From an uncultured Verrucomicrobiae bacterium (GTDB taxonomy: Bacteria > Verrucomicrobiota > Verrucomicrobiia > Chthoniobacterales > UBA10450): a stretch of DNA of 64,000 nt. Location of the stretch: assembly GCA_963815455.1 (NCBI GenBank), contig CAWFGO010000001.1, forward strand, positions 640,001-704,000, written 5' to 3'. Positions 2,069 to 40,474 of the stretch are shown here, in pieces. A program made the translations under genes and the position numbers. Position 1 is the stretch's first letter. Each line of letters begins with the position of its first letter. The notes beneath the pieces were generated by a model. It saw only the letters and a program-made list of their open reading frames with translations, did not search any database and was not told the DNA's origin.

Positions 2069-5000
2069 ATGAATCGTTCCAGCCCCGATCGTGCGGAGAT
2101 TCGTCTTTCTCTGGCCGTTTTTGTCGCTCTTTCCTTCCTGACTGCCGGCCTTTTTGCCCTGACCGCAACGAGCGGCACTCCGCCAAATAATGGTGCCGTC
2201 ATCGCGTCGTCTGCGGCGCCGGAGGTTCGGGCCAACGCCGAGCGGCCGGAGCCTCGTGTAAGCACAACAATTGTAATCAGCCAGGTTTACGGTGGCGGGG
2301 GCAATAGTGGTGCGCCGTACACGAACGATTTCATCGGGCTTTTTAATCGCGGACAAACGCCGGTCAGCCTGAATGGTTGGTCCGTCCAGTATGCCTCGGC
2401 AACAGGCACGGGAGCTTGGACCGCGACCAATCTCACGAATGTTACGCTTCAACCCGGCCAATACTATCTGATCCAAGAGGCAGGGGGCTATGGGATCACC
2501 CCTGCCAACACCGGATGCCATTGGCACCATAAACATGTCTGCTACCGCGGGTAAGGTGGCCCTTGTCAATACCACGACGGCCTTGAGCGGTGCGTGTCCG
2601 ACAGGGGCGACCATTGTCGATCTTGTGGGTTTCGGGCACAACGGCCAACTGCTTTGAGGGATCCGGTCCGACTTCCGCACCAAGCAACACGAACGCCGTG
2701 TTACGCGATGACGCCGGTTGCACAGATACCGATAAGAGACGCAACCGATTTTACACCCGGAACGCCGACTCCCCGGAACACCAGCACGACTTTACAGCCG
2801 TGTGCCCTGGTACCCCGACGCCGACTCCTTCGCCGCCCACTGTGACAACGAACACGGCAACCAACGTGAGTCATATCAACGCGACGCTGAACGGAACGGT
2901 GAATCCTAACGGTGCCAACGCGACGGTCTACTTCGAATACGGTCTCACCACGAGCTACGGATCTCAGACATCAAACCAGATTCTTGCCGGGAGCACCGAC
3001 CAGGCCGTTTTGGCAAACGTCGGATCGCTGACACCTTCGACAACGTATCATTATCGCATCGTGGCAATGAACTCCGAGAGGGACGACGATGGGGAACGAT
3101 GTCACATTTATGACCACTCCCCCACCGAATCCATTTGCCGCATGCGACCTCGTTATCTATCGCGTAGGCGATGGAGGTGCGGCTTTGACCGCTAATGCCG
3201 CTCCGGTCTTCCTTGATGAATATACCACAGCCGGTGGGCTGGTACAATCGATCGCGATGCCAATCGGCGTCAGTGGTTCAAATAAGAGATTAACCGCCAG
3301 TGGTAATTCGACGAGCGAGGGTCTCATTACCCGCTCGACAAGCGGTTCGTACTTAATGGCTACCGGTTATGACGCAAACCCGGGAGACCTCGTGACCGTT
3401 GCTTCGACTACGGTTAAGCGAGTCATTGCCCGCGCGGACGCAAGCGCTGCGGTCGATACCACCACTGCGTTAACGGATGCCGCTTCCAGTGGCAACTTCC
3501 GCGGCGCGACAAGTACAAACGGCACGGACATCTGGGTGGATGGGTCAACGGGCGGGATTCGCTACGCGACCCTAGGATCGACAACGTCGCTGCAATTAAG
3601 CACGGCGGTTACGAACCTCCGTGCCGTTAACATCTTCGATGGCCAACTCTACGTTTCGTCCATGTCAGGGACGAATCGTTTAGCAACAGTTGGTACCGGC
3701 ACACCTACAACCGATAGCCAGACCATTACTAATTTGCCCGGAATCGACGACACCGCCGTTACTGACCCTTATGCGTTTTTCTTCGCTGATCTGGACGTGG
3801 GTGTCCCTGGGAATGATACATTGTACATTGCTGACGGGACAGGCGGAGGCATCAGGAAATTTTCGCTGGTCTCGGACACTTGGATCGCTAACGGAACGAT
3901 TACTGCCGCTGGCTTACGCGGCGTAACCGGCATTGTCGACGGTACGGTTGTTACATTGTATGCAACGGCTAGTGGTTCGTTGTTCGCGTTTACTGATCCA
4001 ACAGGCTACAATGGCTCGGTTGCAGGGACCACGGCCACAGTGATTGCAACCGCCGGCACAAATATGGCGTTCCGGGGAGTAGCGTTTACGCCTGTTCAAT
4101 GCGGAGGACCGACCCCAACGCCGACGCCGACCCCGACGCCCACACCGCCGACCGCCACCACGAACGCAGCGACCAATGTGACCGGGACTGGCGCCACGCT
4201 GAATGGTACGGTCAATCCCAATGGTGCAAGCACAACGGTGCATTTCGAGGACGGAACCACCACCAGCTACGGCTCAACGACCGCGAATCAGATCTTCACC
4301 GGAAGCGCCGACCAGGCAGTATCGGCAAACATCGGCTCGCTGATCCCTTCAACGACATATCATTACCGCATCGTGGCGGTAAACGGTGGCGGGACCGTTA
4401 TGGGGAAGGATATCACATTCATGACCGCGGCCCCGACGCCGACGCCCACGCCGAGCGCGACCACTAACGCCGCGACAAATGTGACCGGCAATAGCGCGAC
4501 GCTCAACGGGACGGTTAATCCGAACGGATCGATTACGACGGTTTACTTCCAGTACGGAACGGACACGAACTACGGGAATCAGACTTCGAATCAAGTCTTA
4601 ACGGGGAGCACGCCGCAAAGTGTATCCGCCGGCATTAGCGGGCTGAATCTTGGCACCACGTATCATTATCGCATCGTGGCGATGAACGGTGGCGGGACAG
4701 TTATGGGGAACGATGTAACATTCATGACTTTGGCACAGACGCCGCCAACTGTTACGACAAACGCGGCAACCAGTATCACGAACGCCGGGGCGACGCTCAA
4801 CGGTTCGGTTAATCCCAACGGTGCGACCACAACGGTCCATTTCGAGGACGGAACTACCACCAGTTACGGTACTTCGACATCTAATCAGATGTTCTCCGGT
4901 AGGACGTCCCAAAATGTGATGGCCAGTATCAGCGGTTTGGTTCCGGGGACACTTTATCATTTCCGACTGGTCGGCACGAACAGTGGCGGGACCGTGAATG

Positions 5001-5953
5001 GCAGCGACATGACTTTCACCACCGTGCAGCCGGCGCCCACCATCACGAGCAGCGCGGCGACAAACATAACCTTCGCGGCGGCAACATTGAATGGGATGGT
5101 CAATCCCAACGGTGCGATGACCACAACCGTTCACTTCGATTACGGGCTAACAACCGGCTACGGCTCGGTGACTTCGAATCAGATGTTCACGGGAACCACG
5201 AATCAGAACGTCACGGCCAACATCAGCGGGCTAACGCCGAGTACGGTCTATCACTTCCGTCTGGTAGGCGTGAACAGTGGCGGGACGACCAACGGAAACG
5301 ACCTCACATTCATGACCGCGGCTCCAACGCCGACCCCGACGCCAACTCCAATCGCTACAATAACAAGCCCGACTGCCGGGCATCTGTCTTCGTCCAGCCC
5401 GACATTTACCTGGAGCCCACGACCAGGGACCACACCGACGGCTTACTTGCTCACGATTGGCGACGATAAATCAAACTCGAATGCGTGCGGTGTGGGCAAG
5501 GCTGGGGGATCAAACGTCTTCAGCTCAGGCCAGACCAGCGGCCTTTCCTGGAACGTCACGAATCTTCCCACGGACGGGCGCACGCTCTACGTGCGATTGT
5601 GGGCAAAGGTCAACGGAGCTTGGTTCAATTTTCCACAGGACACCGTTTACCAGGCCGTGGGCACCAACCCGATCGCGCCGACTATTGCGCCCAGGGCGGC
5701 ACGTTCAAGAAAAAGGTGAAGGTTACCATTCGCCGACGTAACGCCATGCGTGACCCTCCGGTATACTATGAGTGTAGGCACGGGCGCAACGCCTCCTCCG
5801 GATCCTGTCCCACCTACATCCACGACGGGAACCGCCTACAGCGTGCCGTTTACGCTAACCGGAAAAGGCTACAAGGTGATCAGTACAAAAGCCTTCCGGA
5901 GTTCGGACAATACCCAGAGCCCGGTTACAACGGTCACGCTCAAGATAAAGTAA
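2069..5953 (+). CDS. Large secreted multidomain protein: lamin-tail domain, five Fn3-like repeats, central beta-rich domain, C-terminal Fn3-associated/CHB_HEX_C-like domain (split by several frameshifts)
   Basis: VISQVYGGGGNSGAPYTNDFI is an LTD signature; five repeats of TTNAATNVT..ATLNGTVNPNG..TTVHFxYG.TTSYG...YHYRIVA; PTPTPT linkers; ORF pieces 2069-2554, 2590-3195, 3089-5719, 5750-5953. Confidence 0.75.
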
Positions 5954-9657: not shown

Positions 9658-9770
9658 TGTACGGAAATGACGAAGCTCGAATGACGAATGACGAAGGAAG
9701 GCACGAATTCTCAAATGACGAAGGAGCACGCGGGGCGTTCCCATCGTCATTCGGATTCCGTTAAAGGCAG

Positions 9771-9833
9771 TGTAGTGGCGGGCGTGTCGCCCGCACCGGC
9801 TATTACTGCGCGCCCGACACGGGCGCCTCTACA
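9771..9833. repeat. GTAG-type REP inverted pair upstream of rnd
   Basis: TGTAGTGGCGGGCGTGTCGCCCGC ... GCCCGACACGGGCGCCTCTACA. Confidence 0.7.
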
Positions 9834-9837
9834 CCAG

Positions 9838-10888
9838 GTGATCGCAAGTGGGTTAGAACTTCGCGAATTGCTGAGGCGAATCGAGCCGGCCGATCGCATC
9901 GCGGTCGATACCGAAGCGGACAGTCTCCATTGTTATCGGGAGAAACTTTGCTTGTTGCAGATCAGCGTTGCGGGCGGCGATTTTATTGTCGATCCGCTGG
10001 CCGATGTCGATCTTGCGCCGTTGCGGGACGGCGTTGGAACCGAAGGAAATCGTCTTGCAAGGCGCGGACTTCGATCTGCGGATGCTGCGCCGTGGTTTGA
10101 ATTTCAATGCCAGCAAAGTTTTCGACACCGTGATCGCGGCGCGGCTGCTTGGTATCCGCGAGTTCAGCCTGGCGGCGCTGGTGAAAAAATATTTCGATGT
10201 CGATCTTCCGAAAGGCTCGCAAAAGGCGAACTGGGCGCAACGGCCCCTGCCGGCGCGCATGGCGGAGTACGCGATGAACGACACGCGTTACCTCCTGCCA
10301 CTCGCTGAAAAATTGGAAGCGGAGCTGGATAGACATCGGCGTCTGGAATGGTTCCGGCAATCGTGCGAGCGCGCGATTGAGCAGGCAGCAGTAAAACGCG
10401 AACGGGATGAGGACGAAGCGTGGCGAGTTCGCGGCTCAGGCGCATTACGGGGCCGGGCGACACCGGTCTTGCGCGCGCTTTGGCAATGGCGGGAAAAAGA
10501 AGCGGAGGCGGCCGATCGTCCGGCGTTTCACATTTTGCAAAATCATGAGTTGTTGCACTCGGCGGAAAGTTTTGCCGCCGGCAAGGTGCCCGATTACCGG
10601 CATTTTTCCGAGCGACGCCGGCTCGCTTTTCGCCACGCGGCCGAGCGCGCGTTGGAATTGCCGGAGGACCGCTGGCCCGTCTCACGACGCCGTTTTGGAA
10701 CACGGCCCTCGGCGGAAACAGTGCGCCGGACCGAGCAACTGCGACAAAAGCGCGACCACGCGGCAAGGGAGTTGAAGGTGGAGCCGGCGTTTGTGGCGCC
10801 CCGGGCCGCGCTGGAAGCGATCGCAACGGACATTAAGAGCGCGGAAAAACTGCTGGTGCCGTGGCAGCGAGAGCTGCTCGGCCTGTAG
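9838..10888 (+). CDS. rnd: Ribonuclease D (3'-5' exonuclease plus HRDC), frameshift near 10030
   Basis: IAVDTEADSLHCY..LCLLQIS, FDT.IAARLLG, W..RPLP...YA..D, LWQWRE..A...DRP. Confidence 0.88.
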
Positions 10889-10957
10889 AATCCCCTGGCC
10901 GGAGTTTTCCACGAGCAAGGTCTAACAGAAGGAAACGAAGGGAAGGCAACGTTCTGT

Positions 10958-11190
10958 TGTAGCCACGGCGCTGCGCTGCCGTGCATCCGCGTAACAAGAC
11001 GCTGGGAACGCCTCGACGCAGCGAGGCGGCTACAGAAAAGCGTCTTTTACAGAAGGCAACGAAGGAATCGACCGCGGATTACGCGGATAGCGCGGATGCT
11101 TTGTTTTCTGTGTTGTAGTCACGGCGCTGCGTCGCCGTGCATCTGCTAACAAGACACTGGGAACGCCTCGACAGAGCGAGGCGGCTGCAG
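10958..11190. repeat. Two tandem GTAG REP doublets interspersed with 9-bp-period repeats
   Basis: TGTAG(C/T)CACGGCGCTGCG..GCCGTGCATC...GGGAACGCCTCGAC..AGCGAGGCGGCT(A/G)CAG occurs twice. Confidence 0.8.
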
Positions 11191-11379
11191 GCGAGGCCTT
11201 TACAGAAGGAAACGAAGGTAAGGGAGGAAGACGAAGACCGAGCGCGGATGACGCCGATGAGAGAGCGTCCGGTTATTCCCCTTGGTTATCCTCTGTATAA
11301 AATCCCGATAAAAGCTTGACCCGGCAGGGCCGATGCCTCAAAAAAGCGCCCGGAATTACGGGCCCGAGGGCCAGGCATC

Positions 11380-12201
11380 ATGAATCGTTATCTTTGTGTC
11401 TTTGCGTTGTCGTCGCTAGCGATCTCGCTTTTCGACGCGAAGGCCGGCTCTATGACGGAGGCCCGGGTGACGCAGACATCCAACGATGTGCAATTGATCG
11501 GTCCGGAGGCAGCGCCTCATCCGGTATCGGTGAACAACAAACTCGCCGCGAAAACAATCATTCGCACCGGCACCGATTCGCGGGCCGAAGTTACTTTCCC
11601 AGATCAAACCGTGGTGCGTCTCGCAGCCGATACCTCGTTCAATTTCGACAATGGCGGGCGCGATTTAAATTTGGAAAAAGGCGCGGTGCTGGTGCAGCTG
11701 CCAAAGCGCGCGCGCGGCACAAAGATGCACGCCGGCGCGGTGACGGCTGCAGGCGCGGGCACGACCGCGATGCTCGAGTATGCCCCGGGCGTTTGTAAAT
11801 TTCTGGTGTTGCAGGGAACCGGCCGGTTGTACCGCCCCAAACATCTGGGCGATTCTGTTCTGGTTAAGCCGGGCCAGATGATCATTGGCAACCCGGATAA
11901 TGCCTTGAGCGATCCGGTGGATTTCGATATCGACCGGTTCGTGAAAACGAGCCGGTTCATTGTCGATCTTCCTCCTTTGCGTAGCGAGCAGGCGATTGCT
12001 TCGGAAACCCGGAAGCAGGCCCGCGACAAATCGAAAAAAATCCTGATCGATACCAACCTGGTGATTTTCGGCGGCGGAACAATGGTCTCACTGGTTGACC
12101 CGACCAAGCTGGACTTGGGCGACGTCAGAACAGCCGAGTCCCCCACTCCAACTCCAAGCCCGAGTCCCGAAACGGTGGAACTTTTCTCAGCAGCGAAATG
12201 A
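11380..12201 (+). CDS. Secreted FecR-like domain protein (short, no passenger)
   Basis: Signal peptide; EARVT...IRTGTDSRAEVTFPDQTVVRLAADT; Pro/Thr tail. Confidence 0.85.
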   Translation: MNRYLCVFALSSLAISLFDAKAGSMTEARVTQTSNDVQLIGPEAAPHPVSVNNKLAAKTIIRTGTDSRAEVTFPDQTVVRLAADTSFNFDNGGRDLNLEKGAVLVQLPKRARGTKMHAGAVTAAGAGTTAMLEYAPGVCKFLVLQGTGRLYRPKHLGDSVLVKPGQMIIGNPDNALSDPVDFDIDRFVKTSRFIVDLPPLRSEQAIASETRKQARDKSKKILIDTNLVIFGGGTMVSLVDPTKLDLGDVRTAESPTPTPSPSPETVELFSAAK

Positions 12202-15200
12202 AGATGAAAGGAACGTTTGCGAATTTCCGGACCGGCGTGCCGGTGACGCTCTGTTTTGTGGTGATGGCTTTGGGCGCCGGAAAACCGGTTGCGCTGGCCG
12301 CCCCGTTGGAAGAAGCGCGCGTCTCTCGAGTGATTCAGGATGTGCGCTTGCTGGGATCGAATGCCGCACCGCGACCGGCAGCGGTGAACGACGATGTCAA
12401 ACAGGGAACGGCCGTGCGCACTGGGGTCGATTCGCGCGCGGAATTGACCTTCACCGATCAAACGATCACCCGGCTGGGCCAAAATACTGTGTTCAGTATC
12501 AGGGGCGGCACTCGCGAAGTGACTCTGGATAGCGGGGCCATTCTTGTGCAGGTCCCCCACGGCGGCGAGCCCGCGCAAATTCGCACCGCGGCAGTCACGG
12601 CCTCCATCAGTGGCGGCACGGCCATGTTTTCATCGAACCCGAATTTTCCCAAGAAATTACTCGTGCTCGAAGGTCTTGGACATTTTTGCCGGGAACGTCC
12701 GCCGGGGGAAAGACAGCGGCCGGAAGACTGCGTCGATGTGCCCGCCGGGCAAATGGTGATGATGCTGCCCGATGGGAGCATTACCAAGCCCACAAAGTTC
12801 GATGCCAAGCTGGTTTTCACCACCGCGCATCTGCTGACCGATTTTCCGCCGCTGGCCAATGAGTATTTGATTCTGCAAGTGATCGACGAACAGGAGGGCG
12901 GCGCCGGGGCCGGGGCGACCCCAACGCCACCGCCGGATGACATCGATGACATCGACCAACGCGACGCCGCTTCGCCGACACCGAGCCCGACATCGACGGC
13001 AAGTTCAACACCTACTCCAACGCCAAGCTCGACTCCAACTCCGACACCAAGTTCGACGCCAACTCCTACACCGAGCTCGACTCCCACTCCGACACCGAGC
13101 GCGACTCCTACTCCGACACCGAGCGCGACTCCTACTCCGACGCCGAGCGCGACCCCAACACCGACAGCAACGCCAAGCGCAACCCCAACACCGACCGGCA
13201 CGCCGAGCAAGTACGGCACGCCCACTACAATTTCGTCGCCCGATCCTTACGTGATCGATTCCAACACCGTGATCTCGACCGATCCGGCGATTACGAACGG
13301 GGACCAAACCGATTATGGGAAGATTTATCGCGGCCGCGAAATCGACGGAGCGTTCTCGCTCTGGGCGTTTGGATCGACATCGGCGTTCGACACGTCCAGC
13401 GGATTCGACGATGAGATCGACAGTTCGGGCGCGGTTTTCAAGTTTAGCAATCTGATTCTGCAAGGCGACCCGGTTATCAACACGGAGGGCGGCGAAGTTA
13501 ATCTCGGGCTGGTCGCCGTGAATAGCATCATGATTGCGCCGGCCGGTGGCCTTCAAGGCAACCTTGTTCTCACTTTCGCCGGTCTGGATGGTCTGTTGTT
13601 CGCCACTGTAAACGGGCCGATCACAGTCGCGCCGAATGTCGATTTCACGGGGCTCCGGGACCTCATATTTTATGCGCGCGGAGCGACCAGCGATCTCACT
13701 CTGGATGGCAGCTTCGACACCATGCACAAGCTCAGCTTGTATGCCGAGCGCGACATTCTCGGCACCGGTTCGTTCCAATCCGAAAAGATCTACGCCGTCG
13801 CCGGCCGCGATATTTCGCTCGACACCGGTTACGCGATCGAAGGCATCACGATGTATTTCAGGGCCGGAAACAATCTCATACTCGACGGGTTCGACAGCTC
13901 TGACACGGTCGAAAACTCAAGCGGCAACGTCTCATTCATTGCCGGCAACGACATTAACATCCCGGGCGGTCTTTACCTCGATCGCTACAACGGCGGCATC
14001 GACAGCGGACTTAATTTCACGATGGATGCCGGCCACGATATCAACACGGCGAACATCGATGTTTACACCGATACCGGAAACATCGATGGCGGGAATCTTT
14101 TGGTCACCGCGGGTCACGACATCATGGTAGCCAAACGGAATTTCGCTGGAAACGAATGCTGTCAGCGGCAGTGGCGGCGGAAATGCCGGCCGCGCTGATG
14201 GCCCCGCGCTCAAACGGCGCGAACGTCACTCTTCATGCCGGCAACGATATCGTGACGTCGGATATTTATGCGGTCAACGAACCTTAACGAATTGTTCTTT
14301 GATCAAGGCGGAAACATTGCACGTTTCAGCTGACAGAAACATCCAAACGACCAGCGGAGGAATTTCCCTTGGCGTCCAATTTTACGACGGCGCTTCCATC
14401 GGCACAGGTGGCAACATCGGCCTGACCGCGGGCGGGGATATAAATATCGCGGGCGATTTCGATGCTGAAATTGACGGTTCCAATGACGGCCACATCACTG
14501 AAGGCGGCAATCTGAGCGTAATGATTGATGGCGGGCTGACCGCTACCGGCCGGATCTCGCCTGTGATCGACATCGACAGCGGCGGCAGCATTACCACCGG
14601 TGGAAATATCGATTTCCAGATCGGCACTGATTTGAATGCTGATTCATTCCTCCCTGTAATCGACACCGATTCCAGCGGCACGATCGGCACCGGCGGAAAC
14701 ATTTCGTTGAATGTCACCGGGAACGCACAAGTGGCTCAAATCTCGGCCGTGATTGATAACGACACGTTTGGGAACATCGGCATGGGCGGCAGTATCACGG
14801 GCATGGTTGGCGGAAATCTCACAAGTTCGACGGTCAATCTGGACATCGACAACAGCTTCGGCGGTCAAATTGGCACCGGCGGAAACATTTCGCTCACGGT
14901 GGGCGGCAATCTGACTACCGGCGGTGGAGCCGTCGACGCAGCTGGCCCGGTTCTCAGACCCGGCAGCGACGTCCTTGTCCCCAGTGGTTCGCAGCCAGAT
15001 CTCCAACTCACCCTGCAAAACACGAACGGCAACATCGACACCGGCGGCAATATCACCTTGATGGTGGGTGGCAAGGGGACCGGCGACGTTCATGCCAATG
15101 CCTTCGCCTTATATCTCCAGAACTACGATGAGACAGCTAATGCTGCCGGACATATCGGCACTGGAGGAAATATCAACGTCCAGATCGGGGGCAACCTAAC

Positions 15201-18200
15201 GACTGATTCCTATCTCGATGTTTTCCTGAACAATCGCGGCGGCGGAATGATCGATTCGGGCGGGAATTTGACCTTCAACATTGGCGGGGCCTTGACCGTT
15301 GGCGCCGATGAGACGGGGTTCAGCTCTGAGTTTATTGTCGGGAATCGATATGTTGACAGCGGGGGAAACACCAGCGGCTCAAGCATTGGCTCGAACGTAT
15401 CGGTCTATGTCCATGCGGCCAGCGTCAGCATGGACGGGATCATCTACGGTTGCGGCATCAGCAATCGCAGCAGCGTTATCAGCGGGAACGCTACCGTCAC
15501 CTGGGATGTTCCCGGTGACGTAACAATTCAGGGTACGGCCAATATATTTGGGAGTTCTGGAGCTGCCTGGTTCGTACTCAATGACATTCCGTCCGATTAT
15601 CAATTCACGCCGCCATCGGGCGGCACCATTCATGGAGACGCAACGGTAACCGTGAACACCGGTGGCGACTTGAGCGTTACCGGCAATGCCGCCGCTTACA
15701 TCGATCAGTTCCGCCGGAGCGGATTGCCCGATCTGAACGGCGGCACGATCGACGGCAATGCCGCGGTGAACATTACCGCCGCGAACATTTCGATCGGGGA
15801 CGATAAGACCACTTCGAATTTCGACGTTTACATCGGCAACCAGAGAAATGGTCCTGGCCCCGGCACGGCCGGAAGCATCGGCAGCGATGCCACGATTCAA
15901 CTCTCCGTCGCAAACAATCTTTCGACGACCGGTTATCTCGATACGGAGATCGACAACTACAACGGCGGGATAATTAATGGCAATGCAAGCGTCAGCGTGT
16001 CGGCAGGGATGGCCGCCCGCGGTCGCGGCGGATTGCTTACGCCTGGGATCTCGATCGGCTCCGATGCAATTTTCGGAATTTATAATTTTGGCGGCGGGAA
16101 CATTGATGGGACCGCCACGGTCACGGTCGATGCCGCGGATATTTCGGTGGGTGGAGATCTGTCCGCCGAAATCACGAACAGCGGCGGCACGATTGGCGAT
16201 GACGCCGAGATTAATTTCAATATCGCCGGCGATCTCGTAACCGAGAACAGTGCGAACTTTTTTCTCGTCAACTCCGACGGGGGCCATATTGCAGGTAACG
16301 CGACCGTCAATGCTCTTGCCTCCGGCGGAATAAACGGTGGCAATGGCGCCTTCTTCGCAATCATAAACGACGATTCTGACGGCAAGACGCTCGGTGGGAC
16401 AATAGTCGGTGATGCGCTGGTCCACGTCACTGCCGATCATCTCTCCACTGAAACCTTGGATGAGAATGACTTTAACTTGTTTGGGACCATCCATAACTCC
16501 GGTGGCAGCATTGGGGGGAATTCCAAGGTCATGTTTGATATTTCCGGCGCGATCACTACAGCCGGGCGCGCATCGTTCGATATTCTAAACTTCAACGATG
16601 GTGGTGAAAATGGCGGAGGTATGATTGGTGGAAATGCCACCGTGAATGTCAACGCTGGGGCTCTTTCAATCGACGGCGAGCTTCTTGCGAAGATCATCAA
16701 CAACGGCGGGACCATCGACGGGAACGCTGCCATCAGCATCAATGCCTTAAACTCCGGCGGGAAGAAGCGCAGGGCTTCTACGGGCAACATCGACATCCTC
16801 GATGCGGCAACAATCCAAATCTTGAACAGCGGCGAAGGAAGTCAGATCGGCGGCAACGCGTCTATTTCAGTCACAACTGGGGGAGACTTTCACGCGGGTT
16901 CGCTGGATGCGTTGATCGACAATACAAGCGGCGGATTGGTCAAGTCGGCGAGCATCAATTTCAACATTGGCGGCGCCCTAACGACCGACGGGGATGCCAG
17001 CTTCGTGATCGATGGCAGCACCCCAAAATCGAGTAAGCGGCCTGGAAAGGAACCTGTGCCGATGATTCTTGTCGACACCGGCTCGATCGATGTGGGTGGT
17101 TCGCTCACGGCAAACATCCGAGACGACGGCGGCAAGTTTATTTCAGAGGGGAACGTATCCGTTCATGCCGACACCGACATCATGGTCGGCGGCGATTTGA
17201 ACACGTGGGGCAGCGTCACTGCCGGTAACAACATTTCCGTGGGCGGCGTTGTCTATGTTCCAACCGAAGTTACAGCCACTAACGGATCGGTCTCGATCGT
17301 TGGCGGCGCGTTCGTATTTGAGATTTCGGCCGGAACCGACGTCAACATCGGCGGAGGAGCAGATTCGGCGTTCCTGCTTGTGAACGATCTGACTGCCGGG
17401 AATGCCCTGAACCTGATGGATGTTTCACTGATTCAGCCTGAAAGCGCAAGCAGTGACGGCAGCGTCGGGTTCACTCCCGATGATATGACCGTGACCGTGA
17501 ATTCGATCGTAACCACTGGGCCTACCATCCCGTTCCTTCCGTCTAACGGTTCCGATGCCGATTCGAATTTTGGAAACGATAATCCGGGCAACGGCGGCAA
17601 AGTCACTCTCAACATCAACGCCGGTGGCCTGACGATCGGGTCGGGCGGCCAGATAAACTACATCGCAGCCAACGGCGGTAATTACGCAACCGATTCCACC
17701 GCTGGTGGTGGTGGCGGCACGGTAAACATTAATGCCACGGGAGACGTTACGCTGAACGACGGCGACAATGAAACGCCCGCCATTACGACCTACACCGGCC
17801 TGATTCCCGACGGCGGGCCGTTCATCCTCGGCGATGGCGGTGCAGTAACCATCAACAGCGGCGGAACAGTGACGGTTAATTCCACTGTGATCGTTTCGTC
17901 TAACGATGTCTTTAAGGCCGCGCCAGACGAGACCCCGCCACCATATCGTGCCAGCTCGAACGGCGGAAACATCACGATCAATAGCACCAAGACCTCGGGC
18001 CAGGCGATCAACGTCACGAGCTCGGGCCAATTGCTCTCGTTATTGAACGGGGCTGCACCTGGACCGGGTGGAAAGATCTTGTTGCACGCAACCAATCCGA
18101 AAACGAAGCGGAACGGTCGCCCGAATGGTGGAAACAACAGCACCATCGACATCGACAATGGAAACGGCGAGCCCGGCGCGATCATTGCCGATCGCGGCAC

Positions 18201-18753
18201 GGTCGAAATTCGCCACGAAGGAATCGATGGCGCGATCAACATCAACAATGCCTACATTTTCGCCGATATCGTTAAGATCGGCGCGCTCGGCACGAACGGC
18301 ACCTTGACCATCGGCGGCGGTTTGATCTCGGCCGACAGCCAGTTGAAGCTCTATGCCGGCGGCAGCAACGGCACGATCCACTTCATTGCGAATGTGACCC
18401 TGTCCAGTCCGGTAAATATTCTCGCCGCTGATACGGTTCACATCGACATGGGTGTCACCGTCTTTATCGACAATCCGAACAAAACACCCGCCGACGTTTA
18501 CACCAACCATGCCGAATATGGCATCGCCGGAACGGGTGATTTCGGGGGTGCCGGGGCGAATACCCACTCTTTGACCGAGGCACCGCCATTTGACGACACA
18601 GTTGCTCGGGCAGGACGCCATCGTCACCGCGCGGCATCGCAGACGACGGCCGCGGCGCCGTTCCGCCAGCGCGTGGTGCCCTCAATTGAAAACGGCACGG
18701 TTACTCCGACTCGGATTCGTGAGTCCGTCTCCAACTCCATTCCACGGCGATGA
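12198..18753 (+). CDS. Giant secreted protein (~2180 aa reconstructed): FecR-like domain, (TPTPTPSS)n linker, Gly/Asn/Asp-rich beta-solenoid, conserved C-terminal domain; frameshifts near 14130-14300
   Basis: ORFs 12198-14198 and 14299-18753 have continuous repeat character (AGxDINI, IGTGGNIxL.VGG.L); N-terminal VRTGVDSRAELTFTDQTITRLGQNT. Confidence 0.8.
13008..13206 (+). repeat. Coding minisatellite, 24-bp unit encoding TPTPTPS(S/A)
   Basis: About 8 tandem units visible in the translation. Confidence 0.9.
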
Positions 18754-19772
18754 ATAGTAACAGCTTGACCCAGAAAATGAATAGCCTCAAAAAGAGGACC
18801 CCGCGTATGAGCCGTCGCTGTCCATTTCCCCGGTTGGTCCTCGCGATGACGCTGTATATGTCGATCTTGCTGGGTCTAGCCGGCCGAGGTTTTGGCCAGG
18901 AAGTCGAGGCCGATCAGGCCGCCCTGACCCGCAGCCAGGCCCCGTCGCAATTCGGCACCAATGCGCCGCCGACCGGTGTTATCGACGGGCATGCCGTGCC
19001 GACTCCGAACGATTCCGACCTTGGCGAACAGCAAATTCTCAAACGAGCAGAAGGATATCAGCCGTTCACCGTGTCGGCGGGCACGCCTTTCTATTGGACG
19101 TCCAACGTTGCCCTCAGCAACAGCGGCGAAATGGACGATTTCATCATCGCGCCGACAGCTTCTGTGTTCTACGAGCCGCGTTTTACTCCCACGTTTTACG
19201 GTCTGGTCGGCGTCCGTGAGCAGTTGTTTTATTACGATCGATTCGACGGCTTCGATTTTGGAAGCTTCGATTTCGAAATCGGATTCCGATATCTGCTGCC
19301 TCAGTGTCATAATCTGCTTCTCCGCTTCGAGTACGATTACAATCGCCTGACCAAGAAGGACAGCTTCGACGATTTCTATTCGAACCACGTCTTTATCGCC
19401 AGCGCGGACATTCCTTTCCGCTTCGGGCGGGCCCAGCAGGTTTCAATCGGCGCAGATGCGAATATCAGTGCCACGGCCTGGCCGGAAGCTCCCCGCCGCA
19501 ACGATTACGAAGTTTACCTCAGTTATTCGGCGAACCTTACCCGCGCATTTTCGATCAACGCCTCGGGCCGTATTGCCGTGCGTGATTATTATCATCAAGA
19601 CTCGCGCGTCGATGTAAGTGAGATCCTCGCGCTGAGCGCAAATTACCGCATAACCAACTTTCTTAGCGCCGGGGCGATCGGCACTCTTGCGGCCAGCCAG
19701 TCTAACCACGGTGTTTTTGATTACGAAGTAGCGAACGTAGGCGGGGTCGTGTCGCTATGGATAAAGTTCTAA
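18750..19772 (+). CDS. Outer-membrane beta-barrel protein
   Basis: Signal peptide ending GRGFG|QE; alternating aromatic/hydrophobic strands; C-terminal Phe (VSLWIKF) typical of a BAM beta-signal; start may be 18808. Confidence 0.75.
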   Translation: MNSNSLTQKMNSLKKRTPRMSRRCPFPRLVLAMTLYMSILLGLAGRGFGQEVEADQAALTRSQAPSQFGTNAPPTGVIDGHAVPTPNDSDLGEQQILKRAEGYQPFTVSAGTPFYWTSNVALSNSGEMDDFIIAPTASVFYEPRFTPTFYGLVGVREQLFYYDRFDGFDFGSFDFEIGFRYLLPQCHNLLLRFEYDYNRLTKKDSFDDFYSNHVFIASADIPFRFGRAQQVSIGADANISATAWPEAPRRNDYEVYLSYSANLTRAFSINASGRIAVRDYYHQDSRVDVSEILALSANYRITNFLSAGAIGTLAASQSNHGVFDYEVANVGGVVSLWIKF

Positions 19773-22700
19773 AGAACTGCTCGGTAGGCCCGGGCTTCGC
19801 CCGATTCCGGGCGCGGAGGGAGTTTCTGTGGCTGCTGGTCGCTTTGTCGCTGGGTACGCCCAGCAGACCGGTTTTGGCCGAGCAACTGAGCGAGGCCCAG
19901 ATCACTCGAATCATCAAGAAAGTAGAAATGCTTCCCGAGCAGGCCGCGGCGCGTCCGGCCCTTCTGAAGGATACTGTCCGCGGCGGAACGGCCGTGCGTA
20001 CCGGGACGGAGTCACGCACCGAGCTTACCTTTACCGATCAAACGCTCACCCGTCTGGGTGCGAACACGACCTTCACTTTCAATGAAGGGAGTCGCAATAT
20101 CGATCTCGGCGTCGGCGCAATGCTTTTGTACGTGCCCAAGAATAGCGGCGGCGCCAAAATTTCAACCGCAGCCGTGACCGCGGCGATTACCGGCACGACC
20201 GTTCTGATTGAGGCGCATGCCGGCGGGGGGGGGAAGAACCGATCGCCGTTCGGCGCAAGACGAAGAGGCAGAGCATGTCCAGTTTGGGTTGGTGACCCGC
20301 AATCCGACGCCGGCCAACCCGAAGGAGCGAAATGACTATTTCAAATTCATCAGCCTGGAAGGCATCGCCAGCGTCTTTCTCAATAGTCAGCCCGGCGAAA
20401 CGGTCGCTATTCATCCCGGGGAAATGCTCATTGTTCCGGCGAACGCCACGAGGCTGCCAAAACCGGTTACGATCGATCTAAAAAAACTGGTCGAGACCAG
20501 CCTGCTGTTCACGGATTTTGAGCCGCTCGCAAGCGAGCCGTTGATCGCGGAAGAAATTCGAAAGCAGCAGGGCGAAGGCGTCGAAGAGGAGGTTACCGTC
20601 GATAACGATCCCACATCAGGCGACGTGATCGACCAGGCTTTTTCAGCGTTTCCGCCGGTCCCACTTCCACCTGGCCCGACCGGTACGACGATTACCTATC
20701 TTGGCCTTCCCGGTGGAATCTGGAGTTCTCCGGCCAGTTGGACTCCGGCCATCGTGCCCAATAATAGCGGTGGCAAAGCTTACACCGCCATCATCAACAG
20801 CGGAATGCTCACCCAGGACATCGTGGCCGGCGTAATCATTCAACAGTTGCAAATGAACGGCGGAACACTGGTGTTGACCAATCCGCTCACGTTGAACACC
20901 GGGCTGCAATTTACCGGGGGAACCTTTATCGGCGGCAATCTCTTTATTGCCGGAACCAGCACGCAGGCCACGACGATGACCCTTCAGAACGTGATGCTGA
21001 ACAACAGCGGGGCCTACAATATTACAATCAACTCGGGCTTTGCCTTCAATGGAGCGGGATCCAATTTCATCAACTCTGGCACGCTGAGAAAAGCCGACGG
21101 CGGGATGGAGGAGGTGTTTTTCGATATCCCGATCACGAATACGGGCACCGTGTCCGTGCCAACTGGCGCTTTTACATTTAGCGGCGGGGGAACGAACTCC
21201 GGTACGTTCTCAGCCGCGGCGGGCGGATTTCTGCGGATTGATGGCAACTTTACGTTCGACGCGACTTCCAATGTGACCGGCGCCGGTACCATCAACTTCC
21301 TCTCCGGCACGACCAATATCGCGGGCGGCTACAATGTCACCGGCCAAACCAACTTTTCCGGCGCCACCGTCAACTTTAACAGCCCTATCACCAGCCTCGG
21401 TGCGGTTATGATCGACAGTGGCGCGGTGAACTTTAATTCTACCGATGTCACCGCGTCATCGATCACCTTCCTCGGCGGCACTATGGGCGGGACCGCCCCA
21501 AACGTGAACTCGACAGGTCTGTTCACCTGGACGAGCGGCACCTTCAGCGGCGCAGGAGCGATCAATGGCAATGGCGGGATTCTCCTAAACAACGCGCAGG
21601 TCTTCCTGAATCAGCGCACTCTCAACAACGCTCTCGGCCAGACGGCCACCATGAGCAATTTTTCGCAGATCCTTTTCCAAAACGGCGCCGTGATAAACAA
21701 CAACGGCCTGTTCCTCGTCCAAACCAACACCGCCGCCGATGGATTCTTTTATAATAGTGGCGCCGATGGCACTTTTAATAACAACGGCACCTTCACCCGT
21801 AACACCGGGGCGACCTCTTTCGTCGTCACGCCGCAAGTGGCCTTTAACAACGCCGGCACGGTCAACGCCAATAGCGGCACCCTGGTTTTCAACGGTGGCT
21901 ACACCCAAACGGCTGGCACGACGCAGTTGGGCGGCGGCGATATCTCGTCCACTAGCGCGCTGCAAATTCAGGGTGGGCTGCTCACCGGGTCCGGTAATAT
22001 CTTCGCCTCGATTAACAGCAGCGCCACCATCAGGCCGAGCCTCGGCGGCAGCGGTCTCGTCGTCAACGGCAACGTCGCATTAATGACCGGTTCAGATCTC
22101 AGCTTTCAGATCGGCGGACTGACCCAGGGAAGCCAATATAGCTTTCTCAATGTGAGCGGAATGGTCGGCCTCGACGGTAATCTCGTTCTTTCCTTCGCCA
22201 ACGGTTTTCAGAATTCCGTGGCTCCCGGCGATGCGTTCACCATCGCGACGGCCACGGGCGGCGTGACCGGAATCTTTGCCAACGTCGCTTCCGGGGCCCG
22301 GCTCGATACCACCGACGGATTCGGCTCGTTCCAGGTTGATTACACCGGCAACAACATCGTGCTCTCCAATTTCATGCCGCCCGCGGTCGTGATCACCGAA
22401 GCAACGTGGACCGGCGGGGCCGGCAACTGGAGCACCCCGCCCAATTGGGACATCGATCCGAACTTTCCTAACAACGGCCAGCCCAACCCGGGCGATCTCT
22501 ACAATGCGACGCTGAACAATGGCGGCACGATCACGCTCGACATTCCAATCACGATCCAAAATTTCACGCTTGGTGCCGGCACGGTTACCGGCGCCAATTC
22601 GTTAACGATCAATCAGGTTTTTACCTGGAACGGGGGGACGCTGGCCGGCGGAGGCGTTTTCAACGCTAACGGCGGGATCAGTATGGCTGGCGGCAGCCAG

Positions 22701-24884
22701 TTGAATCTGAATGCAGCCACTCTGAACAACGCAGCCGGTCAGACCGCGACCGATAGCGGGTTTCACGACTTCGGTCTGCAGAGTGGCGGCATCATTAACA
22801 ACGCCGGCATATGGCTCGCCCAAAATGATCTTGGAGTTGATTTCGGTAGCGGCGGAACTTTCAACAATTCGGGCACCTTCACGCGCAACGTTGGCGCGGG
22901 CACTTATCAGGTCGCCTTTCCCTTTAACAACACCGGCACGGTTAATGTCGATACCGGCACGCTGGGTCTCAACGGCGGCGGCACCAGCACCGGAGGCTTC
23001 GTGGCTAACGTCGGCGCGATATTAAGTTTCAATGGCGGCACGCATAATCTGAACGGCGCGATGGTCAGCGGAGCGGGTACGGTGCAGCTCGGCAACAGCA
23101 CTTGGAACCTCAATGCCGGCAGCAGCTACAACGTGACCGGCGCCACCACCGTCAGCGGCTCCGCGAATTTTAATGTGAACGCCAACACTAATCTGCTTAA
23201 TGTCACTGCTGGCAGCCTTGGCACCGGCGCAACTTTCACGATAAGCGGCCTGTTCAACTGGGCCGGCGGAACATTGACTGGCGGCGGAATCTTCGACGCC
23301 AATGGCGGAATCAACATGGCTGGCGGATCGCAACTCAATCTCGCTGGCGCCACTCTGAACAACGCAGCCGGTCAGACCGCGACCGATAGCGGGTTCCACG
23401 ACTTCGGTCTGCAGAGTGGCGGCATCATTAACAACGCCGGCATATGGCTCGCCCAAAATAATCTTGGAATTGATTTCGGTAGCGGCGGAACTTTCAACAA
23501 TTCGGGCACCTTCACGCGCAACGTTGGCGCGGGCACCTACCAGATGGCGTTCCCCTTTGACAATATGGGTTCGGTCAACGTCCAGACCGGCACGCTCGCG
23601 TTCCCTTCCACGACGACTTCATCGGGACCAATCAGTGTTAGCGGCGGCGCGACCCTGAGTCTCGGAGGAACGTTTACCCAAACCGCGGGCGCGATCACTC
23701 TCTCCTCGGGTAATTTGGCGATCGGCGGCAATAGCATGGCGAATCTGATCACCGGCACTTCCGGGATGATCAATGTGACCGCGGCTGGTTCTCTCACGGC
23801 TGCGAATGGATTCGACTTTCGCGGCGTAAACAACCTGGGGACTCCCGGCGGCACACTCACGCTCACCGCACCGTCGGTGACGTTCGGAGCCGCCGCGATA
23901 AATGGTGCGCTCTTCACCGGCGGAGACGCGGCCGGCGGTTCGGGGGTAGCCGGCGGAAATGGCGGCAGCTTCACTGGCACCGCAACGACCGGTGATATCC
24001 TGGTGGGAACCAATATCGATGCTTCGAGCGGCGGCAATGATGCCGTCCCGAACGGCGGAAACGGCGGTACCGTTAGTCTTACCGCCAATCTGGGGACCGT
24101 GACCGTAAACAACCGCATTCAGGTTTCGGATACTGTTGCCGGGCGACAAAGCGCAGCTGGCGGCAACATCAACCTCAGCAGCGGCAAAAATTCCGGCGTA
24201 GCCATTAACGTCGCCAACAGCGCGCAATTATTGGCCTTGCTCGACGGAGCCGCGCCCGGACCGGGCGGTCTGATCGCAATCAACGCCACTTCCGTCACGG
24301 GGAACAGTCAGGTTAATGTGGCCGGAGCAATTCGAGCAGACCGCGGCGGCATTGACATTCGAAATGCCAACGCCGGCGGGCAAATTACTCTCACCAATGC
24401 AATAATGATGGCTGACGTTATCAAAGTGGCCACGCTGGGAGATAACAGTACGCTCAACATCAATGGCGGCTTGATCTCGGCGACGACTTTGTTGCGGCTT
24501 TATGCCGGTTCCATTTCGGGAAGCAACAACAGCACGATCAATTTCACGGGCACTGTCAATCTTACCGGCGCCCAAATCGACATCGCCGCGAATACCGTGA
24601 CGATTGGCGTTGGCTCCACCGTAATGACCAGTTCGCAGGCCCACGTCTATGCGACGGTTCGTAACTATGATCTGGGATCGGGCGGAAATGGGACTGGAGG
24701 AATGTTTGGCGGAGCAGGAGCGATCTCGTTCCCGCTTTTGATGGCGCCGCCGCTTGGGCCGCCCGGCGGAACCGGGGCTGGAACGCGTCCAACCGCGTTG
24801 CCGAATCATCGGTCCCATATCCGCGCGCTCGAAAGAACGATCGACAAACAAAATTCTCAACAAAATCGACAACTACGACCATGA
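19757..24884 (+). CDS. Giant secreted protein (~1700 aa reconstructed): FecR-like domain, autotransporter-passenger-like beta-helix, conserved C-terminal domain; frameshift at G9 tract 20225-20233
   Basis: VRTGTESRTELTFTDQTLTRLGANT; W.G..G.WS...NW and FNN.GTF repeats; removing one G joins ORFs 19757-20335 and 20208-24884. Confidence 0.82.
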
Positions 24885-25675
24885 ACAAACTACTACGCGC
24901 TCCTATTCGTCTCATCGGAATCCTCTTCATCGCCACGATCGGGGTCGGCCTCACCCACCTGGCTATTGCCGCTCCGAAAAAAGAGGCGCGCGTCACCGAA
25001 GTTGTTCGCGACGTGAACTTGCTTACTTCCCGTGCCGCGCCGCGCCCAGCCGCGGTAAACGACAGCGTCCAGGAAGGAACAGCGGTGCGCACCGGCAGCG
25101 ATTCCCGCGCCGAGATCACTTTCACCGATCAAACTCTCACCCGGCTCGGCGCCAATACCGTTTTCAGTTTCGGCCGGGCCACAAAGACCTACGACTTGGG
25201 CAGCGGCGCTATCTTAATGTATGCGCCCCAAAAAGCCGGCGAAGTAAAAATTCATACCTCTGTCGCAACCGCCGCCATCGCTGGCTTCACCGCCATGTTC
25301 GAGCATCATCCCAAAGGCTGGAGCAAACTCATTCTCCTCCACGGCAAGGGCAGAGTTTCGTTCAAAGGAGTTCCCGGCGACCCTTGCCGGCTCCACGACG
25401 CCCAAATGATTGTCTGGCCTGCTCATCCGACAACATGTCCACAAGTGCACGATATCGATCTCTCCAAATTACTCCGCGGCAAACTGGTCAAGGGGTTCAA
25501 AAGAAAGTTGCCGGAACTCGATATCATTTTGGCTGAAATAAAAAAACAGGAAGCCGAGCCGCCGACCGGCGGACTAATTGATCCCACATCCCTAGACACG
25601 CTCGATCAGCGCTCCGCCACCGAGCCGTTGCCTACGCCCCCGCCGCATCATTCACCGCCGGGCAAGGGCCTTTAA
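24881..25675 (+). CDS. Secreted FecR-like domain protein (short, no passenger)
   Basis: Signal peptide; EARVTEVVRDV...VRTGSDSRAEITFTDQTLTRLGANT; Pro-rich tail. Confidence 0.85.
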   Translation: MNKLLRAPIRLIGILFIATIGVGLTHLAIAAPKKEARVTEVVRDVNLLTSRAAPRPAAVNDSVQEGTAVRTGSDSRAEITFTDQTLTRLGANTVFSFGRATKTYDLGSGAILMYAPQKAGEVKIHTSVATAAIAGFTAMFEHHPKGWSKLILLHGKGRVSFKGVPGDPCRLHDAQMIVWPAHPTTCPQVHDIDLSKLLRGKLVKGFKRKLPELDIILAEIKKQEAEPPTGGLIDPTSLDTLDQRSATEPLPTPPPHHSPPGKGL

Positions 25676-35171: not shown

Positions 35172-35194
35172 TGGGCCTTGAATCAGAAACGTCG

Positions 35195-35432
35195 CTATTG
35201 CTGTTTCCGCTCTTTGACCATCGACATCAGCCGGTCTTTGATCGCAGCGGAAGCTTTGGCCGGACGCAAACTCAAAGCAAACGCCTCATGCAATGCATAG
35301 CATTCGGCGATAAAATCTTCGCCTTTCTGCCCAAACTTCTTGCGCGCCTTCTCAAACTCTCTTGTCTCTGCCGGGATCTAGCGCGCCGATAACGTAAAGG
35401 CGCGAGCGCTTTTGGAATTCTTCAAAGCTCAT
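35195..35432 (-). CDS. Short anti-sigma-like protein (frameshifted; not in ORF track)
   Basis: Manual translation MSFEEFQKRSRLYVIGALDP..EFEKARKK...ECYALHEAFALSLRP....IKDRLM; overlaps the end of the sigma gene. Confidence 0.6.
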
Positions 35433-36143
35433 CTTTCAGTTCCTTCAGTCCGTCATAGATTTTTTTCAGTCCGAGTTCAAGTCTCGTCTTCACTGTTCCC
35501 AATGGTGTATTCGTTTTTGCGGCGATTTCGCGCTGGCTCATCCCGCGAAAAAATGCCAGCTCGATGGCCTCCCGCTGCGCCGGTGGAATTCGCGTTAATG
35601 ACTTTGCCGCACAAGCTTGCGCGTATCGCTGAAGGTGATTTCCTCCTCGGTGGAGTTATGGACCCAGGCGTCGGGTTGTTGCTCGGTTTCGGCTTGCAGG
35701 CGTTCTTCGGCGCGGGCGTAAGCCTGCTTTTTCCGCAGACCATCGATCGCACGGCGCCGGGCCAGCGTAACCATCCATCCCAACGGCTTGCCTTTTTCGG
35801 CCGAGAAGTTTTTGGCCTGCTTCCAGATCTCCATGAAGATCTCCTGTAGCAGATCGTCGGCCTCAGCGTCGTTGTGGATCACGCGCAAAATCAGCGCTTT
35901 CAAGATTCCGTTGTAACGATCGTATAGTTGGGAAAGAGCATCCGGGTTCTCGGCCTGGATGCCTTCCATCAGCTCGAGATCGCTGGGCCCTTCCGGCTCG
36001 ACCTTTGGAGGAGGAGCCGCCGCGTGCAACTCGTTGACGACTATTTTCGCGGACCGGACTCTTCTTTCGGCAGCGTTTTTCGGCCGGCCGCGCTTTGTCT
36101 TGGTCTGAGGACGAGATCGGCCGGTGCGACGCATCTGGCTCAT
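35422..36143 (-). CDS. ECF sigma factor (frameshift near 35600)
   Basis: ALSQLYDRY, ADDLLQEIF..IW, LP..QREAIELAFFRGMSQREIA...TPLGTVKTRL. Confidence 0.88.
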
Positions 36144-37031: not shown

Positions 37032-37174
37032 GACCGTTTCCACCTCAAATTAGACGACCAAGTTTCGACGGCAGCCACTCGATGTGGCTGCCGTCGCTTT
37101 TTTTGGCAACGTCGGCTTTTCTGTTTCCAATCGCGCGATTGCGCGAGGCGATTTGTGCAGCAAAGGTTAGCCAC

Positions 37175-40474
<3,300 letters not shown>

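Follow-up and report, generated by a model that had tools for sequence, protein, structure and literature searches.

What role does a small outer-membrane beta-barrel play in an operon whose four other products all carry a FecR-type head domain, two of them continuing into giant beta-helices? This question is raised by a five-gene operon (positions 11380..25675) in a stretch of 64,000 nucleotides, here called the window, from the genome of an uncultured Verrucomicrobiae bacterium of the order Chthoniobacterales. The source genome comprises 3.6 Mb on 7 contigs, is ~90% complete, and contains the window as C1:640001-704000. Genes 1 and 5 encode small FecR-head proteins, genes 2 and 4 giant FecR-headed beta-helix proteins, and gene 3 the barrel (Table 1). 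An initial annotation of the sequence had regarded the head as a module recognized by the barrel in an export route of a new type, and had named trans-envelope signaling with an unlinked partner as the alternative. In our analysis this alternative is better supported than the export idea. We lean slightly towards a reading in which barrel and head form the envelope half of a CHASE2 signaling module whose cyclase is encoded elsewhere in this genome, and, with the same slight preference, towards the operon working most like a split version of the rhizobial NsrA-CyaK module that lacks tetratricopeptide repeats (TPRs).

NsrA is described as an outer-membrane beta-barrel receptor needed for signaling by the CHASE2 cyclases CyaK/CyaD (PMC7529298, PMC13001267; papers are cited here and below for those parts that were compared). 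In the parts of the literature compared, the route from this FecR-domain receptor to the CHASE2 cyclase is left unexplained. A split form would reduce the module to three small parts, namely barrel, head, and CHASE2 domain, and a predicted docking peptide of 13 residues together with the split parts makes mutational tests of each contact feasible. All 22 genomes sampled from the family of this bacterium contain the operon. Linkage of FecR and CHASE2 itself is already in print for other phyla.

Predicted docking of the head on the barrel

Co-folding of the mature barrel with the head of gene 2 gave a median docking score of 0.74, whereas none of three controls exceeded 0.00. At least 31% of the contacts were common to the docking runs, and the partner pLDDT (predicted local distance difference test) was at least 77. 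In calibration, 116 of 157 solved pairs and 2 of 215 mismatched pairs attained the mark set for the score, which applies only roughly to our own alignments. Almost all confident contacts came from barrel residues 85-97, a peptide with the motif DxDLGxQxxL. Its positions are among the most conserved of the barrel family (D88 92%, D90 87%, G92 100%, Q94 96%, and L97 94% in 79 barrels), and the contacted head residues are conserved likewise (R 91%, G 100%, L 97%, K 99%, Q 96%). Among 97 full-length cluster representatives, 74 carry a looser version of the motif. The 'DIDQR' segment behind the head lies outside the confident contacts of the model, a result that speaks neither for nor against threading. 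These predictions support, short of demonstrating, recognition of the head by the barrel. This part of the initial proposal thus gained weight, although fibre export as the conserved task of the barrel did not, as the gene neighborhoods indicate.

Gene neighborhoods of the barrel family

The survey covered 122 distinct barrel loci, made up of the 80 best GTDB matches and additional chosen regions after removal of duplicates and of broken or truncated barrels. Loci were regarded as well flanked if they extended at least 6 kb on each side of the barrel. In a quick tree (no bootstrap, midpoint root, careful search unfinished), from which 5 duplicate rows were dropped and broken or truncated barrels such as those of loci L123 and L072 were left out, the window barrel fell into an 80-row clade with support 100. 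Judging from its taxonomic spread, this is presumably a derived clade. As a rule, rho and rnd are found upstream of its barrels. Outside the clade, the choice of regions was not random but favored long contigs and a spread over families.

The linkage of barrel and head genes expected from the initial annotation was borne out. A FecR head was located within 8 kb of the barrel in 38 of 38 well-flanked clade loci and in 38 of 40 others. At least two heads were present at 29 of the 38 clade loci but at none of the other 40, and the conserved C-terminal tail domain of the giant proteins was found nearby at 34 of 38 versus 16 of 40. Since 24 of the 40 loci outside the clade are devoid of a beta-helix tail in the vicinity of the barrel, fibre export is not the conserved job of the latter.

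The further expectation that this linkage would occur without a CHASE2 cyclase failed for the family as a whole. Outside the clade, a CHASE2 gene was found within 6 kb of the barrel at 30 of 40 well-flanked loci. Among the 34 CHASE2-linked barrels, the CHASE2 gene was divergent in 27 cases, co-oriented downstream in 4, and convergent in 3, and in 29 of the 34 the same frame also encoded a cyclase domain. At one barrel-head locus (L120:10456-12519) a CHASE2 histidine kinase takes the place of the cyclase. Of 301 genomes sampled throughout the phylum, 7 contained the barrel. In the order the count was 86 of 201 (one of these 201, G465, is unpublished and enters the tallies only), and in the family, whose close relatives are labeled Ca. 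Udaeobacter/Chthoniobacterales, it was 22 of 22. In the order, CHASE2 was present in 85 of the 86 genomes with the barrel versus 45 of the 115 without it. In one genus with 22 genomes, the 11 that hold the barrel are also the 11 that hold CHASE2, and a CHASE2 protein was found in all 22 genomes of the family. We conclude that barrel, head, and CHASE2 form the conserved core, to which the fibre is an optional extension. Fibres and extra heads were amplified in one family of the Chthoniobacterales, where the sensor gene is mostly unlinked.

The source genome itself encodes two CHASE2 cyclases, neither of them at the window locus. One belongs to a second barrel locus with a complete copy of the module (L001:5984-14178, C1:1166-1174 kb), where the gene for a CHASE2 adenylate cyclase is divergent from those of the barrel and a 1012-aa FecR fibre; a histidine kinase with a cyclic-nucleotide-binding domain and a metallo-beta-lactamase-fold protein are also encoded there. 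The other, an unlinked CHASE2 adenylate cyclase (L141:8631-10778, C2:181.6-183.8 kb), shares 61-62% identity with the cyclases encoded directly downstream of the clade barrels L013 and L035, the next best match being at most 42%, and groups with these two cyclases with support 100. It is the orthologue of these cyclases beside barrels of the window type. A histidine-kinase-like and two response-regulator-like genes, recognized by eye, follow the C2 cyclase gene.

The barrel

Gene 3 encodes 340 aa counted from the first ATG, and its last residue is Phe, in accordance with the barrel-like protein of about 320-340 aa originally described. For the barrel, 1046 homologues (E <= 0.001) were recovered among 5549 candidates, and 574 clusters were obtained at 50% identity. 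The best 150 representatives all have at most 359 aa, hence the barrel is a stand-alone protein. No Pfam family matched gene 3 above the cut-off in the Pfam scan, so that at this cut-off the barrel is assigned to no named family, in line with the initial proposal. Among 79 diverse barrels, matches at E <= 0.05 were obtained to BBP2_2 (PF10082) in 49, PF13557 in 6, SlipAM in 2, and Autotransporter (PF03797) in 1 (E 0.032); PF03797 was not found in the source genome, as far as its 90% completeness allows. PF04575 (Slam) matched 2 of the 79 weakly (best E 1.7e-4).

The AlphaFold2 model has 12 strands and a helix at residues 89-100, with a mean pLDDT of 67 (strands mostly 80-90, N-terminus <50). 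Foldseek alone returned only generic barrel matches. In structure comparisons the translocator of AaaA was the closest (Z 21.1, root mean square deviation (rmsd) 3.2, 246 aligned residues), followed by COG4313 (Z 19.2), NalP (18.8), and EstA (18.6). FapF, a stand-alone plugged 12-stranded barrel secreting polypeptides (PMC5557850), matched with Z 17.3 (rmsd 2.9, 215 aligned), the plug position being unsure at the pLDDT <50 of the model's N-terminus. No Slam chain was among the fold matches listed, although kinship may exist nonetheless. The fold comparisons place the modeled gene 3 product among 12-stranded barrels without indicating a function. A literature search, with most subscription papers outside its reach, found no paper on this barrel family of the Verrucomicrobiota.

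FecR-type heads and giant fibres

That the same FecR-like domain heads four of the proteins was verified by matches to PF04773 above the cut-off in all of them (E 1.9e-12, 5.3e-10, 4.2e-10, and 1e-7). Pairwise identities among the four are 36-50%. All five operon proteins start with a hydrophobic stretch at the N-terminus, which by eye is likely a cleavable signal peptide. In gene 1 the head is followed by a 'TNLVIFGGGT' segment, which is typical of first-in-operon heads and is shared by 36 of the clade's 40 upstream small heads. An orphan FecR-head protein of 332 aa with a Pro/Gly/His/Lys-rich tail is encoded elsewhere in the source genome (L002:8462-9460, C3:144.5 kb); no barrel or CHASE2 gene was found within the 20 kb fetched around it.

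The two giant beta-solenoids were likewise confirmed. Their passengers contain ~17% Gly, are rich in Asn and Thr, and have at most 0.1% Cys. Gene 4 lacks the 'mid' domain of gene 2, and its passenger is unlike that of gene 2; the tail domains of the two are ~40% identical. L005, a gene-2 orthologue of 665 aa whose passenger is short, was modeled with a pLDDT of 89. In the model the head is followed by a helix, a disordered linker, and an uninterrupted beta-helix, but no barrel is present. The modeled head matched the CJM subdomain of PupR (6ovk; Z 15.6, rmsd 2.5, 139 aligned), as well as BDI_1681 and, weakly, 5ix9 (Z 6.0, TM-target 0.71), a 'cell surface anchoring domain'. Searched by profile against PDB sequences, the head gave weak matches only (PupR, E 0.15). 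The beta-helix matched the secretion domain of EtpA (Z 24.9, rmsd 2.8, 268 aligned), which Foldseek alone had placed at E 0.38. A hidden autotransporter barrel in the giants, whose absence had been assumed initially, was rejected on the basis of the Pfam scan, the L005 model, and a search of the genome. The Pfam scan also gave no match of the giants to haemagglutinin-activity families, and an Atlas search with the tail domain provided no usable lead (top score 0.86).

Across the family the giants share the C-terminal tail and usually the 'mid' domain, and their middles are hypervariable in sequence and in length, from almost none to >2000 residues. The shortest giant has 666 aa and the longest 2723 aa; behind the head, Cys is absent from 53 of 67. 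Among the best 120 tail homologues, 91 carry a head and 97 an aromatic last residue. Headless or split fibres (29 of these 120) were rejected as a real form, the one traced (P0322, identical to L124) being an assembly frameshift. Many fibres (L094, L097, L102, L103, L127, L128, L129, L137, P0271-P0390) end in a PG(Y/F)-type C-terminus directly after the tail, possibly an export or protease signal; others, including both window giants, carry an Arg-rich extension of 50-150 aa beyond the tail. At E <= 0.01 the heads also matched Leptospira FecR-domain families (Lsa33 in 70 and Lsa19 in 50 of 139) and, below the cut-off of this model, retention_LapA (NF033682; 25 of 139, best E 9e-7). Gene 5 scored 16 bits against NF033682, the cut-off being 50.

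Proposed mechanism and alternative explanations

In the gene directly upstream of cyaK in S. meliloti, FecR and TPR regions are combined in a protein of 1190 aa, which by its place and size is taken to be NsrA. Our head profile matched its residues 61-179 (E 4e-16, one-sequence search). In the mechanism that we propose, all five operon proteins would cross the inner membrane by the Sec pathway, and the barrel would be inserted into the outer membrane, as suggested by the N-termini, the fold, and the terminal Phe. The head very probably binds the DxDLGxQxxL peptide of the barrel, which precedes strand 1 and therefore should face the periplasm or the lumen. This non-covalent clip would stand in for the covalent FecR-TPR-barrel link of NsrA. 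The tethered head would then relay to a sensor in the inner membrane by way of the CHASE2 domain that this sensor exposes to the periplasm, and would thereby change cyclic AMP (cAMP); gene linkage makes such a relay likely for the family, and we regard its chances at the window locus as even. The sensor of the window locus would most likely be the cyclase on contig C2. Behind two of the heads, a Pro/Thr linker and a long TpsA-like beta-helix would probably form a variable sensing or adhesive fibre. This fibre may be threaded out via the barrel while the head stays behind as an anchor in the periplasm, although we rate this a little below an even chance. The four paralogous heads may compete for, or alternate on, the single barrel. 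A bolder version of the mechanism, which we consider doubtful, would make the barrel the translocon of a new secretion-and-sensing route. The C-terminal beta-helix of the giants would be threaded out, while the head, clipped to the barrel's plug peptide, would remain as anchor in the periplasm and report load on the fibre, or its contacts, to the CHASE2 cyclase. A single barrel would then serve several interchangeable fibres, and a surface fibre would be wired to cAMP in an abundant soil lineage. If fibres do cross the outer membrane via the barrel, their export would follow a new route in which a non-covalent anchor retains them.

Several observations weigh against CHASE2 signaling by the window operon. 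CHASE2 was found near just 1 of the 38 well-flanked clade loci (2 of 79 in all), hence the link may have been lost in the clade. The barrels L013 and L035 are placed deep in the clade, and their CHASE2 neighbors could be re-linkages. The genomes counted are kin, therefore the co-occurrence numbers overstate independence; 45 genomes hold CHASE2 yet no barrel, and one barrel-bearing genome (G327) lacks CHASE2. A few loci have other neighbors, such as a Ser/Thr kinase (L095:12307-16791) or a TPR-CHAT protease (L129:3889-6756), and the barrels of L104 and L110 are without a FecR head within ~9 kb. Outside the clade, 39 of 44 heads retain the GT motif of self-cleavage that is discussed in connection with FecR-type signaling (PMC13719327), yet 45 of 60 clade giants, gene 2 included, have GG instead. 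Finally, the barrel profile gave no match in NsrA, although a very remote kinship may exist. As a separate observation, the apparently frameshifted barrel gene of L104 adjoins a gene with a cyclase domain and no detectable CHASE2 domain.

The first rival, which corresponds to the initial proposal, is a pure export and display function with no signaling role left. In the clade, the barrel would serve as fibre translocon, the head would both target the fibre and anchor it in the periplasm, and CHASE2 linkage would be a mere ancestral trait. In its favor, tail-bearing giants are commoner in the clade, where CHASE2 linkage falls. The TpsA-like fold of the fibre, the size and Cys-poverty of the giants, the proximity of the barrel fold to autotransporter translocators, COG4313, and the plugged secretion barrel FapF, and the resemblance of heads to 5ix9 and retention_LapA all are in line with display. 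The conserved partner of the barrel outside the clade, however, is the head and not the fibre, CHASE2 is kept in every genome of the family, two clade barrels have orthologues of the C2 cyclase as neighbors, and the likeness to 12-stranded folds is common to channels and exporters. We regard display alone as unlikely. Still less probable is a purely periplasmic tether without any export, in which heads clip the barrel, beta-helices serve as periplasmic spacers or scaffolds, and the cyclase link is optional. Confident contacts involve solely the N-terminal peptide of the barrel and the head, the FecR-TPR arm of NsrA appears periplasmic by its architecture, and the locus holds no translocon of a known kind, which would suit a tether. 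Rods of 1400-1900 residues, however, are estimated from the usual helix pitch to be ~30-40 nm long and so reach or exceed the usual width of the periplasm, and hypervariable middles fit surface proteins better than a spacer.

Two further explanations have very little probability in our view. Fibres could exit via an unlinked TpsB, the small barrel being a mere anchor or a small-molecule channel; the source genome indeed contains one ShlB/TpsB gene (C1:1138.6 kb), and the TpsA-like fibre fold and the resemblance of the barrel to the COG4313 channel are compatible with this. This TpsB gene, though, is located ~480 kb from the operon and adjoins its own TpsA-like frame of 3910 codons, and the N-terminus of the giants, which lack haemagglutinin-activity matches, is taken up by the head. 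TpsB and the 3910-codon frame flank TonB/ExbBD-type and porin-like genes (C1:1121586-1140140, by eye). A weak FecR match in this frame (C1:1.12-1.13 Mb) was unsupported by the head profile, and the frame looks like an ordinary TpsA. The least probable explanation is a classical FecR anti-sigma system with an extracytoplasmic function (ECF) sigma factor and a TonB-dependent receptor. Pfam FecR matches and the head fold, shared with PupR and BDI_1681, speak for it, but the architecture largely refutes it: the heads start 25-40 aa after the Met, which leaves no room for a cytoplasmic anti-sigma domain. Searches of the locus revealed no sigma, TonB-dependent receptor, TpsB, or autotransporter barrel, in accordance with the initial annotation. 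In the fetched loci, queried with the source genome's own proteins only, sigma-like genes were located at least 3.9 kb from the barrel in 11 cases and no TonB-dependent receptor was found. The nearest sigma gene is ~10 kb downstream of the operon on the other strand. This ECF sigma (35595-36143) was rejected as a partner because of its distance and orientation and the short anti-sigma-like frame that follows it (by eye).

Operon structure and sequence breaks

The five co-oriented, overlapping genes were found as initially annotated. Stop and start overlap in ATGA at 12198/12201, 18750/18753, and 24881/24884, and the stop of gene 3 at 19772 overlaps the earliest possible ATG of gene 4 at 19757.

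Table 1. Features of the FecR-head/barrel operon, with positions in the window
Feature	Position	Strand	Evidence
Gene 1, small FecR-head protein, 273 aa	11380..12201	+	PF04773, E 1.9e-12
Gene 2, giant FecR-headed beta-helix protein, ~2185 aa, two frameshifts	12198..18753	+	Sequence, Pfam, orthologue model
Gene 2, FecR/CJM-type head (chain used for complex prediction)	12300..13010	+	
Gene 2, Pro/Thr/Ser low-complexity linker	12969..13205	+	Sequence
Gene 2, conserved 'mid' domain, opens the beta-helix	13203..13757	+	Local profile, E 3.7e-69
Gene 2, conserved C-terminal beta-helix 'tail' domain	17659..18591	+	Local profile, E 2.4e-71; no Pfam barrel family
Gene 3, stand-alone outer-membrane beta-barrel, predicted 12 strands, BBP2_2-like, terminal Phe	18750..19772	+	
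Gene 3, N-terminal docking peptide, residues 85-97 (TPNDSDLGEQQIL)	19002..19040	+	Predicted FecR-head interface
Gene 4, giant FecR-headed beta-helix protein, ~1709 aa, one frameshift	19757..24884	+	
Gene 4, conserved C-terminal beta-helix 'tail' domain	23991..24755	+	Local profile, E 1.9e-63
Gene 5, small FecR-head protein, 264 aa, Pro-rich end	24881..25675	+	PF04773, E 1e-7

Gene 2 has two frame breaks, near 14130-14300; the single break of gene 4 coincides with a G9 run (20225-20233). These breaks probably are assembly indels, since 67 relatives hold head and tail in a single frame, since two contigs of related strains are 16 nt shorter across the gene-4 break and keep the frame open, and since other genes of the window are split across frames as well. 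The two contigs stem from relatives in one study and not from the source strain. For the gene-2 breaks, no bridging piece was among the contig pieces listed. Four DNA sequencing runs hold relatives only (5-7% of words, one study), and no RNA run holding operon sequence was among the runs listed. The other split genes are rnd (9688-10888), the ECF sigma (35190-36143), and an alpha-amylase-family gene (36725-38965), pointing to frequent indel errors in the assembly as judged from the frames.

A scan for promoters and terminators gave no excess over shuffled sequence. The upstream intergenic region (10890-11280) contains two similar copies of ~100 nt, near 10955-11050 and 11105-11215, which probably represent a repeated palindromic element. 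Frames with a lamin-tail domain and fibronectin type III repeats at 2069-5719 probably are parts of one secreted protein.

Comparison with known systems

Type V secretion systems resemble the operon in the predicted 12-stranded barrel with an N-terminal helix and in TpsA-like beta-helix passengers with signal-like N-termini. In contrast to these systems, barrel and passenger are encoded by separate genes here, the locus lacks an Omp85/POTRA protein, and no Pfam match to a two-partner secretion domain was obtained, although the beta-helix behind the linker does match the fold of the EtpA secretion domain. FapF and COG4313 share the stand-alone 12-stranded barrel and the N-terminal helix before strand 1, both predicted here, but identity in the structural alignments is 5-8%, a long coiled coil is missing, and the partners are FecR-headed proteins instead of amyloid subunits. 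Slam proteins (type XI) came up as look-alikes in a language-model comparison with a score of 0.96, and 44% of the cluster concerned carries PF04575. The barrel of Slam has 14 strands, whereas 12 are predicted here, a TPR domain is absent, and the partners have no TbpB-like barrel. The signal-peptide-like N-termini argue against LapA-type type I secretion.

The FecA/FecR/FecI and PupB/PupR systems share the CJM-type head fold and the principle that an N-terminal extension of an outer-membrane protein binds a FecR-type periplasmic domain. In PupR a cytoplasmic anti-sigma domain (~80 aa) is located ahead of the membrane helix (PMC7186176); the operon has neither such a domain nor a linked sigma or TonB-dependent receptor, and the predicted ligand of the head is a 13-residue peptide, not a folded N-terminal signaling domain. 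Further parallels are clusters with proposed signaling in which an exported FecR-domain protein is linked to a CHASE2 sensor, namely the Campylobacterota cluster of CHASE2 cyclase, phosphodiesterase, FecR-domain protein, and TPR (PMC9239204) and the Burkholderia operon of LysM-FecR and CHASE2 kinase (PMC5192318). In the portions of these descriptions that were compared, neither a small barrel without TPRs nor a docking peptide nor a fibre of beta-helix type is mentioned.

From NsrA, a single chain of 1190 aa with TPRs and a larger barrel, the system described here differs in its separate genes for head and barrel, a predicted peptide clip, no TPR match, and multiple heads, some of them with kilo-residue beta-helices; at the window locus the cyclase is also unlinked. 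A further FecR-domain protein is among the targets of Clr (PMC5498481). As fusion, TPRs, and barrel homology are not shared, the operon is not a member of the NsrA family. What it has in common with NsrA and the CHASE2 adenylate cyclases CyaK/CyaD1/CyaD2 of Sinorhizobium meliloti is a homologous exported FecR-type domain that is devoid of an anti-sigma part and tied to an outer-membrane barrel, and, in most relatives, a CHASE2 class III cyclase as neighbor.

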